NCBI GenBank assembly: GCA_963771355.1
Contig: CAVYTA010000006.1
Coordinates: 1,376,001-1,440,000, forward strand
DNA: 64,000 nt
Direction of reading: 5' to 3'
From: an uncultured Candidatus Rokubacteria bacterium
Lineage (GTDB): Bacteria; Methylomirabilota; Methylomirabilia; Rokubacteriales; CSP1-6
The position numbers were made by a program, and so were the translations under genes. This document shows, piece by piece, positions 3,745 through 53,722 of the stretch. Under the pieces are notes generated by a model, which did no database searches, was not told the DNA's origin, and was given only the letters and a program-made list of their open reading frames with translations. Within the stretch, counting starts at the first letter, position 1; every line of letters starts with the position of its first letter.

Positions 3745-3945
3745 CTATTCCCCTCCGCGCTGGACGTAGCTCTTCACGAACTCCTCCGCGTTCTCCTCGA
3801 GGATGTCGTCGATCTCGTCCAGGAGATTGTCGAGATCCTCCTTCAGCTTCTTGCCCTTCTTGGCGAGCTCGCCGCTTCCCGCGCCGGACTCATCGCCTTC
3901 CGCCGGCTTGCTCGGCCTCGTTTCCTTCTTCTTCTGCTCTGCCAT
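3745..3945 (-). CDS. pup: Prokaryotic ubiquitin-like protein Pup (C-terminal GGE)
   Basis: 66 aa, charged disordered N-terminus, then LDNLLDEIDDILEENAEEFVKSYVQRGGE, the Pup signature; GGAGG RBS upstream. Confidence 0.92.
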   Translation of the reverse strand: MAEQKKKETRPSKPAEGDESGAGSGELAKKGKKLKEDLDNLLDEIDDILEENAEEFVKSYVQRGGE

Positions 3946-26514: not shown

Positions 26515-27051
26515 CTACTCCTGGCCCTCGAGGATGAGCTTCACCACCTGCGGCGCGATCTCGCGCGCGCGCTGATCCAGCTGGGCCTCGGAGAGGTTGG
26601 CGATGGGATGCGGCATGGCGAGGAACTTGTACGCGGGCAGCCCCCACGACTGGGCCATCGCCCGCCCGGTGCCCTCGAAGACGTCGGTGACGATCGACGC
26701 GGCGGGAACGCCGTTCTTCTCCATCAGGATTCCGTCGAGCACACTGCCCGACGAGCAGGACCCTCAGTCGCCGATGCCGGCGACGACGACGTCGACGGTC
26801 CGCTTGGCCTCCTCCAGGATCTCCGCGTGCGCGGGGACGCTGGCATTGTGCTTCCGCCACATGCGGCACTCCGCCGCGCCGTAGTCGTTGATGAGGATCT
26901 CGCCGATCCGGTGCAGCAGCCGATCGGAGTTGAACTTGGTGTTCTCCACCAGGCCCACGCGCTTGCCCTTCAGCGAGTCCGGGCGCGCCACGAAGGTCAA
27001 CGGCTGGCGGCGCGGCTCCACGGTGGGGTCGAGGATTTCGATGGGTGCCAT
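26515..27051 (-). CDS. UGSC-family selenoprotein (178 aa; Sec at codon 96, UGA at 26764-26766)
   Basis: Two track ORFs (the 3' part of 26764..29271 and 26515..26742) are in one frame separated only by TGA: ...VVVAGIGD-U-GSCSSGSVLDG...; hairpin CGUCGGGCA-GUG-UGCUCGACG starts 10 nt after the UGA. Confidence 0.85.
26733..26753 (-). promoter_or_regulatory. Putative SECIS hairpin of the UGSC gene
   Basis: 9-bp stem (one G-U pair) with a G-containing apical loop just 3' of the in-frame UGA. Confidence 0.65.
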
Positions 27052-28100
27052 CAGGCCCTCCTCTCTCGGATGAGCTTCGTCACCGACTGGGAGGAGCGGC
27101 GGCCCCCCGCCCAGCCTGGGATGTAACACGAGAACGCGCCCGCGCGACCGCCCGCGGCGAGCACGAGCACGTCCTCCGGTCCCGCCACCAATGACTTGTA
27201 GGTGGTCTCGTCCTGCGGGGTCACTCCCCCGGGCAGGCGCTCCGTACGCTTGAAGTGGGCGAGGCTGACCTGGGTATTGTCGAAGACGTACTTCCGGATG
27301 TCGGCCTTGGTCCAGCCCCCCGCCGCGATGGTCCGCATGTGCTCGCCGGCGAGCACCACCACGTACTGGGGCTGACCCCCGGTGCTGTTGTGGTGACGCA
27401 TGTCGTCGCAGAGCGTCTTGAGGATCCCCTCCGGGGTGCTGGAGAGCTGGTTGTAGAACTGCCGCGGCCCTTCCGCCGACATCACCGTCACCGTGCTGTC
27501 GCCGGCGGCGAAGCCCCGCTCGACGTGCAGCGGTGTCCAGGGGCTCTCCGCCTCGTTCTCCGCGATCACGTAGGTGTACTTCCCGGGATGGCCGATGGTG
27601 CCACGGTCGAGCAGGCCGGGCAGCGTCCCGATCACGTTTCGCATGACCAGGCGCAAGGCGCGCCCCACGGTGGCGTTGGAGCGCCAGCCCGGCCCGAAGA
27701 GATTGTCCTCGCAGTTGAAGCCGAAGCGAGTGGCGATGGGCCCGTTGACGATCATGAGGACGGCGGCGCCGCCGGTGGAGGTGGCGGGTCCGTGATAGCC
27801 CCAGGCCGGCTCCGCGATGCCCTCCACTGCCGCCACCACGATGGGCATGTACTCGGGCCGGCAGCCCGCCATCACCGCGTTGATGGCGACCTTCTCCGCC
27901 GTCACCGCGACCTGGCGATTGGTGATGTAGGCGATCTGATGGTCCGGCTCGAGCCCGGCGGCCTCGAGCATGGCCCGCACCGCCGGCTCGGTGGGCGGGA
28001 CCACGGGGAGTCCGTCCGTCCAGCCCCGGTCGTAGCACAGCTCCATGGCCAGCCCGATGTCCGCGACGACGTGACGCTTGGAGGCGAGTGCCGTTGTCAT
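27051..28100 (-). CDS. Conserved uncharacterised protein (UGSC-associated partner)
   Basis: GWTDGLPVVPPT, TAEKVAINAVMAGC.PEY, NGPIA, GPG.RSNATVGRALRL, GHPGKY, AENE.ESPW.PLH.ERGF; TGATG overlap with the UGSC gene; ATG 7 nt after TATAAT. Confidence 0.8.
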   Translation of the reverse strand: MTTALASKRHVVADIGLAMELCYDRGWTDGLPVVPPTEPAVRAMLEAAGLEPDHQIAYITNRQVAVTAEKVAINAVMAGCRPEYMPIVVAAVEGIAEPAWGYHGPATSTGGAAVLMIVNGPIATRFGFNCEDNLFGPGWRSNATVGRALRLVMRNVIGTLPGLLDRGTIGHPGKYTYVIAENEAESPWTPLHVERGFAAGDSTVTVMSAEGPRQFYNQLSSTPEGILKTLCDDMRHHNSTGGQPQYVVVLAGEHMRTIAAGGWTKADIRKYVFDNTQVSLAHFKRTERLPGGVTPQDETTYKSLVAGPEDVLVLAAGGRAGAFSCYIPGWAGGRRSSQSVTKLIRERRA

Positions 28101-28128
28101 GCCGGGGATTATACCCGAAGATGCGAGC

Positions 28129-53116: not shown

Positions 53117-53722
53117 GTGACGCGAACGGCAAGCCTGGCCGCCCTGGCGCTGGCCCTCTGGGTGAGCGCGTGCTCCGGCCAGACGGATCGAACCACGGCG
53201 GGCTCCATCACGGTGGATCCCGTGATGACCAAGGGCCCCGCGGAGGCCGTCGTCACCATCGTCGAGTTCTCGGACTACCAGTGACCCTTCTGCAAGCGAG
53301 CCCAGCAGGTGCTGGGCCAGGTCATGGCGGAATTCCCGGGTCAGGTGCGCCTGGTCTTCAAGGACTTCCCGCTCGACTTCCACGACCGCGCCCGGCCGGC
53401 GGCGCGGGCGGCGCGCTGCGCGGGCGAGGCGGGACGCTTCTGGGAGTACCACGACCTGCTCTTCGTCGGCCAGTCAGACTTGAGCCAGGAGCGCCTGCTC
53501 CAGTACGCGGACCAGGTGGGCATGGGCCGCGAGACCTTCGCGCGATGCCTGGACGGCGAGCGCTTCCAGACGGAAGTGGAGAAGGACCTGGACGAGGGCC
53601 GCGCGCTCGGGGTGACCGGAACGCCGACCTTCTTCATCAACGGCCGCCGGCTGGTGGGCGCGCATCCGGTCGAAACCTTCCGCGAGGTCGTGCGCGAGGC
53701 TCTGGAATCTGCCCGGCGCTAG
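53117..53722 (+). CDS. DsbA/BdbD-like thioredoxin-fold lipoprotein, selenoprotein (201 aa; Sec at codon 56, UGA at 53282-53284)
   Basis: AAGGAG RBS + GTG; lipobox VSAC; KGPAEAVVTIVEFSDYQ-U-PFC continues in frame into ORF 53309..53722 (FKDFPL..H, GVTGTPTFFING); hairpin follows. Confidence 0.88.
53300..53317 (+). promoter_or_regulatory. Putative SECIS hairpin of the DsbA-like gene
   Basis: GCCCAGC-AGGU-GCUGGGC perfect 7-bp stem starting 15 nt after the UGA. Confidence 0.7.

Follow-up and report, generated by a model that had tools for sequence, protein, structure and literature searches.

A UGSC-family selenoprotein and its 'Unknown_1' partner in a Rokubacteria genome: a candidate two-part reductase fed by thioredoxin reductase

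Introduction

UGSC proteins are a catalogued family of bacterial selenoproteins (NF041046, PF24696; PMC2398784, PMC1976440, PMC13188914), characterized in the accessible parts of these papers by a U-G-S-C motif, an in-frame TGA and a hairpin. The accessible parts of these papers assign them no function; PMC2398784 proposes a thioredoxin (Trx)-like fold and presents, in 2008, a domain labelled 'Unknown_1' fused to UGSC (Fig. S1A). A precedent for attack by selenium comes from the D-proline reductase subunit PrdB, in which selenocysteine (Sec) carries out the attack and the U151C variant is inactive, as far as the accessible text of PMC11229817 reports. Here, we analyzed a UGSC gene, a member of this family with all three of its hallmarks, and the partner gene that precedes it in a stretch of 64,000 nucleotides (hereafter, the window; contig CAVYTA010000006.1, positions 1,376,001 to 1,440,000) from an uncultured Candidatus Rokubacteria bacterium whose genome is 5.5 Mb long and 99.8% complete.

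Both the family and its fusion to 'Unknown_1' were thus already on record in the accessible part of that literature. Kinship with GrdB, linkage to thioredoxin reductase (TrxR) and a function for UGSC are not stated in the accessible parts of the papers searched (PMC2398784, PMC13188914, PMC1976440, PMC9312934, PMC5029168, PMC11229817), a search whose coverage left out most subscription journals, and the functional picture proposed below is likewise absent from them. What the locus holds is not a new discovery but an orphan already in the catalogues, for which we offer a testable model.

Results

A probable selenocysteine codon

The list of open reading frames splits the UGSC gene at TGA 26766-26764, and reading through it yields AGIGD-U-GSCSSGS within a 178-residue product containing a UxxC pair. 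The product scored 141.2 bits against NF041046 (cut-off 125) and 195.9 bits against PF24696 (cut-off 25), and this one Pfam domain runs across the TGA. All six UGSC paralogues of the genome have TGA at the aligned codon, as do 102/102 aligned copies from 80 related loci. In a protein search, 106 of 107 full-length homologues spanning the motif had Cys at positions 96 and 99, the remaining one having Arg. The genome also encodes selA, selB, selD and tRNA-Sec (selC), all detected above their cut-offs.

The hairpin that begins at nucleotide 10 past the TGA (loop GUG, 10 bp, 19 nt, -16.6 kcal/mol) lies within the ranges for a bacterial selenocysteine insertion sequence (bSECIS) given in the legend of Fig. 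2, the part of PMC13188914 accessible for this point: a loop of 3-9 nt, a stem of 4-16 bp, G in the first two loop positions, a spacing of 16-37 nt and a minimum free energy of -7.5 kcal/mol or lower. Its folding energy is barely beyond chance in DNA of 70% GC (z of -0.8, -0.95 and -2.2 for three fragments), and we therefore rejected the energy alone as evidence. Codon usage was more informative. At seven four- or six-fold degenerate codons of the hairpin the commonest codon accounted for 98.5%, versus 62.5% at 36 codons of like degeneracy in the rest of the gene, in a set of 76 orthologues whose kinship to each other makes the p value of this test an overstatement; the loop Ser was always encoded by AGT, which makes up 1.8% of Ser codons. 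Stem pairing was retained at 7.6 of 8 pairs in 66 distinct TGA-type sequences versus 4.6 of 8 in 10 Cys-type sequences, and one stem pair was swapped between C-G and G-C (39 vs 27). Sec and hairpin were both kept in 148 of the 163 UGSC matches read.

Because the TGA and Cys alignments, the constraint on the hairpin and the sel genes agree, TGA 26764-26766 behaves as a Sec codon, and incorporation of Sec at this position is predicted with good support. An earlier sequence-only reading of this DNA had proposed the split gene with its UxxC-containing product, membership of the UGSC family and Sec read-through. The alignments across the TGA, the Cys homologues at codon 96, the sel genes, the family scores and the bSECIS-type scoring all bear these proposals out; its hairpin lies where it was placed, and what supports it is the synonymous constraint and not the energy.

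Near-obligate pairing with one partner family

All six UGSC copies in the genome adjoin one of eight partner copies or are fused with one, a single fusion being present in this genome. Among 121 genomes of the phylum, kin that are not independent of each other, UGSC and the partner occur in the same 102 and are missing from the same 19; each of the 78 other genomes of the family contains both, with 2-13 matches. The partner was likewise present in 7/7 plasmid records retrieved with a UGSC query. Of 162 UGSC domains in the fetched loci, none stood alone: 155 were either fused to a partner or encoded no more than 500 nt from one on the same strand, 5 were within 3 kb and the remaining 2 were at contig ends; this count is biased in that most loci were chosen by the partner, whereas the six-copy, 121-genome and plasmid counts are free of that bias. 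UGSC domains occurred in 35 of 59 longer partner representatives (59 of 150 scanned), N-terminal in 30 and C-terminal in 5, and UGSC was adjacent to or fused with the partner in every annotated plasmid or chromid locus read (12 of 24). Of 73 junctions between the two genes in relatives, 63 overlap by 1 or 4 nt. The pairing is close to obligate for UGSC and looser in the reverse direction. Co-occurrence and fusions in both orders uphold the coupling to a constant partner that the sequence-only reading had proposed.

That reading had placed the pair in an undescribed enzyme, but the pairing itself is already described. Compared by eye, residues 72-130 of the partner match the printed 'Unknown_1' alignment (AVNGVMAGCRPEYMP...NGP) in Fig. 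S1A, within the accessible part of PMC2398784, and a conserved Cys80 is common to both. Sequence searches of Pfam, NCBIfam and the PDB gave no match for the 349-residue partner, which nevertheless has 5,367 relatives at 50% clustering; in the ESM Atlas it retrieved solely unnamed clusters of its own family. Its model (predicted local distance difference test score, pLDDT, 95.6) had no clear fold match among solved structures (Foldseek TM <=0.28; VIA best Z 5.7 over 48,161 chains), although such failed searches of a predicted model do not prove a new fold. Two Cys columns are conserved in the family, C80 in 97% and column 178 in 87%, the latter being Val in this protein. The partner also has a conserved candidate cleft (D29, T109, R140, N142, R147, E181). 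We do not favor Cys80 as a redox relay or Fe-S ligand, since Ala replaces it in two fusions that have the U/C-S-T-C motif intact (L005, L150) and it is kept in the four fusions read whose UGSC domain lacks the motif (L148, P0156, P0177, P0266).

Several variants of the pair were observed. In two fusions (L147:8323-10008 and L148:8311-10035) the UGSC domain reads D-M-G-T-S in place of D-U-G-S-C, and both adjoin genes for aconitase X and DUF126. A large clade of UGSC-partner fusions (P0430-P0495; names include Kiritimatiellae and Clostridia) carries C-G-L-C in place of U-G-S-C, and the five N-terminal extensions read are signal-peptide-like, followed by C-x-D-G-x-C, so that these fusions are possibly an exported form. 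Haloarchaeal loci (L143, L145) have the order partner-UGSC-partner, and tandem partner doubles occur elsewhere (e.g., P0123, P0134), which suggests more than one partner domain per UGSC. In Paracoccus ferrooxidans (L144:8399-10056), selA and selB enclose a TGA-type pair at a locus that also has genes for cysteine desulfurase, TusA and DsrE; UGSC is entered in that record as two hypothetical proteins. Acidovorax sp. T1 is a further cultured host of the TGA type. In another locus (L169:4711-7593; G034:C178), the pair is directly followed by two TGA-split genes, one YciW/AhpD-like with CxxU and one MerB/SaoL-like, a possible three-selenoprotein operon.

Probable remote kinship with the Sec domain of GrdB

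The sequence-only reading had pointed to a likeness between UGSC and the C-terminal region of glycine and proline reductase B subunits, a likeness that appears real but remote. In hhalign, a 36-sequence UGSC profile matched an 8-sequence GrdB profile with a probability of 94.3% (E 1e-7) over 133 columns, with U aligned on U and C on C. The match remained at 68-72% after masking of the UxxC, whereas the best of 40 column shuffles reached 2% and the best of 39 decoy families 6%. The GrdB- and PrdB-like genes were drawn from relatives, with identity checked on three examples, and the profiles were built only from the loci recovered by the motif pattern (8/30 GrdB and 16/20 PrdB-like). Narrower comparisons were weak, at 37% with 2 GrdB sequences and 65% with 8. 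These comparisons argue well for kinship with the Sec domain of GrdB/PrdB, and UGSC is quite probably a remote relative of that of GrdB.

The structure predicted for UGSC (pLDDT 94.0) has five strands in an alternating alpha/beta arrangement, and U96 opens the helix after strand 3. Its best fold matches are flavodoxin- or Rossmann-like (Z 10.3, root-mean-square deviation (rmsd) 3.3, 125 aligned, a designed protein), and the listed matches include no thioredoxin-fold chain and no GrdB/PrdB chain. Pfam likewise gave no match of the thioredoxin clan, PF24696 being the sole match at E 0.1. As modelled, UGSC looks flavodoxin-like, which does not sit easily with the 'likely Trx-like fold' given in the accessible part of PMC2398784. 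PDB sequence searches with both proteins and both profiles returned nothing credible, and an ESM Atlas search with a Cys-type UGSC homologue gave no usable named match once PF24696 was skipped.

Kinship does not amount to membership. Neither UGSC nor the partner matched PF07355, TIGR01917/01918 or TIGR04483 at E 0.1, models that do match true GrdB and PrdB-like proteins. No GRDB match was found in this genome or three congeners by a search that was positive in 89/121 genomes. The genome has no match to PF09338 (GrdE/PrdA type) or GrdA, a search in which no control genome was positive; the partner itself did not match PF09338 and reached a probability of 0.5% against a 17-sequence GrdE profile. 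We therefore do not regard UGSC as a member of the Grd/Prd systems, and because the partner is without similarity to the pyruvoyl subunit GrdE/PrdA, Grd/Prd chemistry is not simply transferable to it.

Separately, short PrdB-like selenoproteins (U-P-[IV]-C or U-G-L-C; L119-L138) are common in the phylum. By eye, no PrdA-like gene was recognized among their called neighbours, which include rplU-rpmA-obg or radical-SAM-like genes.

Recurrent association with thioredoxin reductase

Analysis of the gene neighbourhoods and fusions of the partner confirmed UGSC fusions in both orders and also revealed fusions with TrxR. When the 7,986 best candidates were scored, 104 partner proteins exceeded 611 aa. 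UGSC was present in 73 of these, a TrxR-type domain in 22 and a redoxin in 2, and the last 7 had other domains or none. All 22 TrxR-type fusions keep CxxC, and the TrxR domain is C-terminal in 18 and N-terminal in 4, two orders that require at least two fusion events. On a FastTree phylogeny of 206/212 partner domains (6 too short were left out; midpoint root, no formal clade test), they fell into five separate groups. TIGR01292 was checked on 5 of the 22, of which one exceeded the cut-off. Among the 59 longer representatives, further fusions involved redoxin/AhpC-TSA (3/59) and the ferredoxin-thioredoxin reductase beta chain (2/59).

Gene order gave a similar picture. Three annotated loci out of 12 include trxB in the gene run of the pair, in the order trxB-trxA-partner-UGSC in Arthrobacter sp. 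ERGS1:01 and partner-UGSC-trxB in Roseovarius sp. THAF8 and Variovorax sp. SRS16, and a fourth has a TrxR-like gene with CxxC; TrxR or TrxR-like genes also occur in 5/21 metagenome loci related to the Variovorax query, which are not independent. In the genome studied here, trxB and trxA lie away from the locus. The repeated fusion and co-location with TrxR is the strongest functional clue, one that the sequence-only reading had missed, and it argues well for TrxR as the probable electron supply.

At the majority of the 12 annotated loci and at two of the paralogues in this genome, the flanking genes encode TRAP, TTT, TAXI, ABC or MFS transporters and LysR or IclR regulators, and CoA transferases or dehydrogenases also stand beside these at annotated loci.

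A model of the module and its alternatives

The account that we favor, with modest confidence, is that UGSC and its partner together make up a selenol reductase of two parts, supplied by TrxR and acting on a small imported compound. In this account, the partner would hold a small organic substrate for attack by the predicted U96 selenolate of UGSC, the reduced product would then be released by Cys99, and TrxR, with or without thioredoxin, would use NADPH to re-reduce the UxxC pair. Since TrxR and thioredoxin are encoded elsewhere in this genome, they would act in trans. The partner might thus bind the substrate, which could be an imported organic acid or an organosulfur or organonitrogen compound, and the order of electron transfer might be as given. 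The reduced bond may be S-O, S-S, N-O, or C-N/C-S as in Grd/Prd. Betaine-reductase chemistry depends on an activated (onium) substrate. Since the module has no pyruvoyl subunit, C-N cleavage would need a pre-activated substrate such as an onium compound, and S-O, S-S or N-O bonds are therefore at least as likely to be the ones reduced.

Several observations weigh against this model. No TrxR gene was found within 9 kb at 8/12 annotated loci, and no TrxR-like recurrent neighbour family was found at the 80 close-relative loci, a search based on N-terminal sequence in which most clusters were not family-scanned. Neighbouring genes are heterogeneous and vary between loci. Two of the eight partner copies in the genome have no UGSC nearby, and UGSC domains that lack Sec/Cys and the second Cys are still fused to the partner (L147, L148, P0156, P0177, P0266), so that the proposed redox center is not needed for the module to persist. 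On the side of the kinship, UGSC reached only 59% against the PrdB-like profile, the N-terminal half of the UGSC-GrdB match was not significant by itself, and a GrdB-side profile run over 30,030 genome segments placed 3/6 UGSC genes in the top 7 with none below E 0.4. The low score of the partner against GrdE also counts here.

A more specific version of the model is an aerobic-compatible third branch of glycine/proline-reductase chemistry, in which a minimal GrdB-like Sec domain would dock on a new-fold partner and the selenolate would cleave C-N or C-S bonds in onium or otherwise activated organic acids, with no pyruvoyl group and with NADPH supplying electrons via TrxR. We consider this version rather doubtful. 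If it were true, the paralogues with different partners would represent an enzyme family for various substrates in Rokubacteria and marine bacteria.

The persistence of motif-less UGSC domains raises the alternative that the partner is a non-redox enzyme (a hydro-lyase, isomerase or similar) and that the role of UGSC and TrxR is only to maintain its activity or to supply a nucleophile, with no net reduction. Both annotated motif-less cases adjoin aconitase X, orphan partners and tandem partner doubles exist, and the partner model faintly resembles the class I enzyme of fumarate hydration, fumarate hydratase (Z 5.0 over 189 aligned residues, rmsd 5.1). However, this likeness lies within the background of the search, and the partner lacks the three conserved cluster-binding Cys of the alpha subunit of that enzyme. 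The retention of CxxC by TrxR fusions in five clades, and of Sec and hairpin in most UGSC matches, also counts against this alternative, and we judge a non-redox partner to be unlikely.

The same TrxR and Trx links and the UxxC motif could instead describe a general antioxidant or a protein thiol-disulfide oxidoreductase (peroxidase- or Msr-like), as the Trx-like fold suggested in the accessible part of PMC2398784 implies, and the occurrence of the module in all 78 other genomes of the family is housekeeping-like. Such a role appears improbable to us, given that UGSC has no thioredoxin-family Pfam match, that its model resembles flavodoxin- or Rossmann-like chains, that the 349-residue partner is strictly needed and that cultured hosts place the pair in catabolic clusters with transporters and regulators.

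A true glycine, sarcosine, betaine or D-proline reductase acting on its known substrate would accord with the profile kinship and with the real GrdB genes of many relatives. It is very unlikely in view of the missing GRDB, TIGR01918 and TIGR04483 matches of both proteins, the lack of GRDB in the genome and its three congeners, and a partner unlike GrdE in a genome where PF09338 and GrdA gave no match (with controls not positive). Finally, we practically dismiss a real stop or an assembly error leaving two small genes or a pseudogene, because the TGA is invariant in copies and paralogues, Cys occupies the position in nearly all protein homologues, a single Pfam domain spans it, the hairpin constraint is lost in Cys forms and the sel machinery is complete.

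Layout of the locus and neighbouring genes

The coordinates of the features are given in Table 1. The 349-residue partner, the TGATG overlap and the TATAAT box reported by the sequence-only reading are all present in the sequence.

Table 1. Features of the UGSC-partner locus in the window
Feature	Position	Strand	Remark
Partner gene, 349 aa, 'Unknown_1' family	27051..28100	-	Confident model
UGSC-family selenoprotein gene, 178 aa on read-through, predicted Sec codon 96 and Cys99 (UxxC)	26515..27051	-	
In-frame TGA, probable Sec codon 96	26764..26766	-	Paralogue, orthologue and Cys-homologue alignments
Bacterial SECIS-type hairpin, 10-bp stem, GUG loop	26732..26754	-	Loop 19 nt past TGA
Overlapping stop/start TGATG of partner and UGSC genes	27049..27053	-	One shared base
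TATAAT, likely -10 box	28108..28113	-	7 nt ahead of partner ATG

The overlap suggests translational coupling of the two genes. TATAAT is likely the -10 box of a leaderless partner transcript; it has no -35 match, which explains its absence from the promoter-scan output. The identical box and spacing occur in 9/65 relatives examined, all among the closest, and in most of the others a Shine-Dalgarno motif replaces it. The partner and an NDH-2-like gene are divergent, with 28 bp between their starts (28101-28128), and these genes are adjacent in 24/88 loci. Fourteen listed DNA sequencing runs hold at least 0.79 of the words of the stretch, and two RNA runs from one study hold 0.54 and 0.27, values from which strand and level are not readable.

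Downstream, the YheT-like hydrolase gene starts 18 nt past the UGSC stop. Among 88 loci, many of them on contigs that end early, the neighbours were the YheT-like hydrolase in 58, a TPR protein in 44, GNAT in 17, M20 peptidase in 10 and PspC in 4, all of the orthologous clade, and one sub-clade has different downstream neighbours. None of these five genes was seen at seven paralogous loci, and none is named at the 12 annotated ones. They track this UGSC orthologue in Rokubacteria-like genomes only, and we rejected them as module members because they are confined to the orthologous clade. Their link to the pair, which the sequence-only reading had left undecided, is probably one of lineage synteny outside the module; the YheT-like gene is possibly co-transcribed with UGSC, and a shared function is without support.

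Other candidate selenoproteins were also noted. A second one in the window (53117-53722, plus strand; TGA 53282-53284) is a DsbA/thioredoxin-like lipoprotein with DYQ-U-PFC, whose best NCBIfam match is the Rcas_1661 family (seleno)lipoprotein at 118.7 bits, below the cut-off of 190. A rough genome-wide scan for TGA, a Cys motif and a hairpin yielded 14 candidates, several of them Trx/Grx/Prx- and AhpD-like; it undercounts, since it recovered only 2/6 UGSC genes. One candidate, Prx-like with UxxC (C6:2320178), sits 3.5 kb from a TrxR-like gene (C6:2323676). The window additionally contains a gene for Pup, the pupylation tag (3745-3945, minus strand; TIGR03687 over cut-off).

Discussion

With a fixed partner, an electron donor and a link to the GrdB Sec domain, a family that has been an orphan for 18 years would become open to a defined assay of three components. 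The module is present in every searched genome of this soil family, in several copies each, and with the Cys-type versions found in harmless cultured hosts (Arthrobacter, Roseovarius, Variovorax, haloarchaea) there is no need to produce a selenoprotein, which is difficult. The partner family is in addition a target for structural work, as it comprises thousands of clusters and has no Pfam model and no clear fold match.

In comparison with known systems, the proposed cycle resembles those of MsrA/B, ArsC and phosphoadenosine phosphosulfate (PAPS) reductase in its nucleophilic Cys or Sec, its resolving Cys and its regeneration by TrxR/Trx, although neither protein has a sequence match to these enzymes and here the architecture would be a two-protein one with a partner that falls in no recognized family. 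With respect to the UGSC literature, the present analysis differs in its flavodoxin-like model and in a profile that points to GrdB. GrdB/GrdF/GrdH (TIGR01918) and PrdB (TIGR04483) share with UGSC an aligned UxxC, after which come E-x-x-G-[VI]-P and an H-P motif, and they likewise work with a separate larger subunit. Unlike them, UGSC is only 178 residues long, lacks the N-terminal GRDB region and apparently receives its electrons from TrxR, directly or via Trx.

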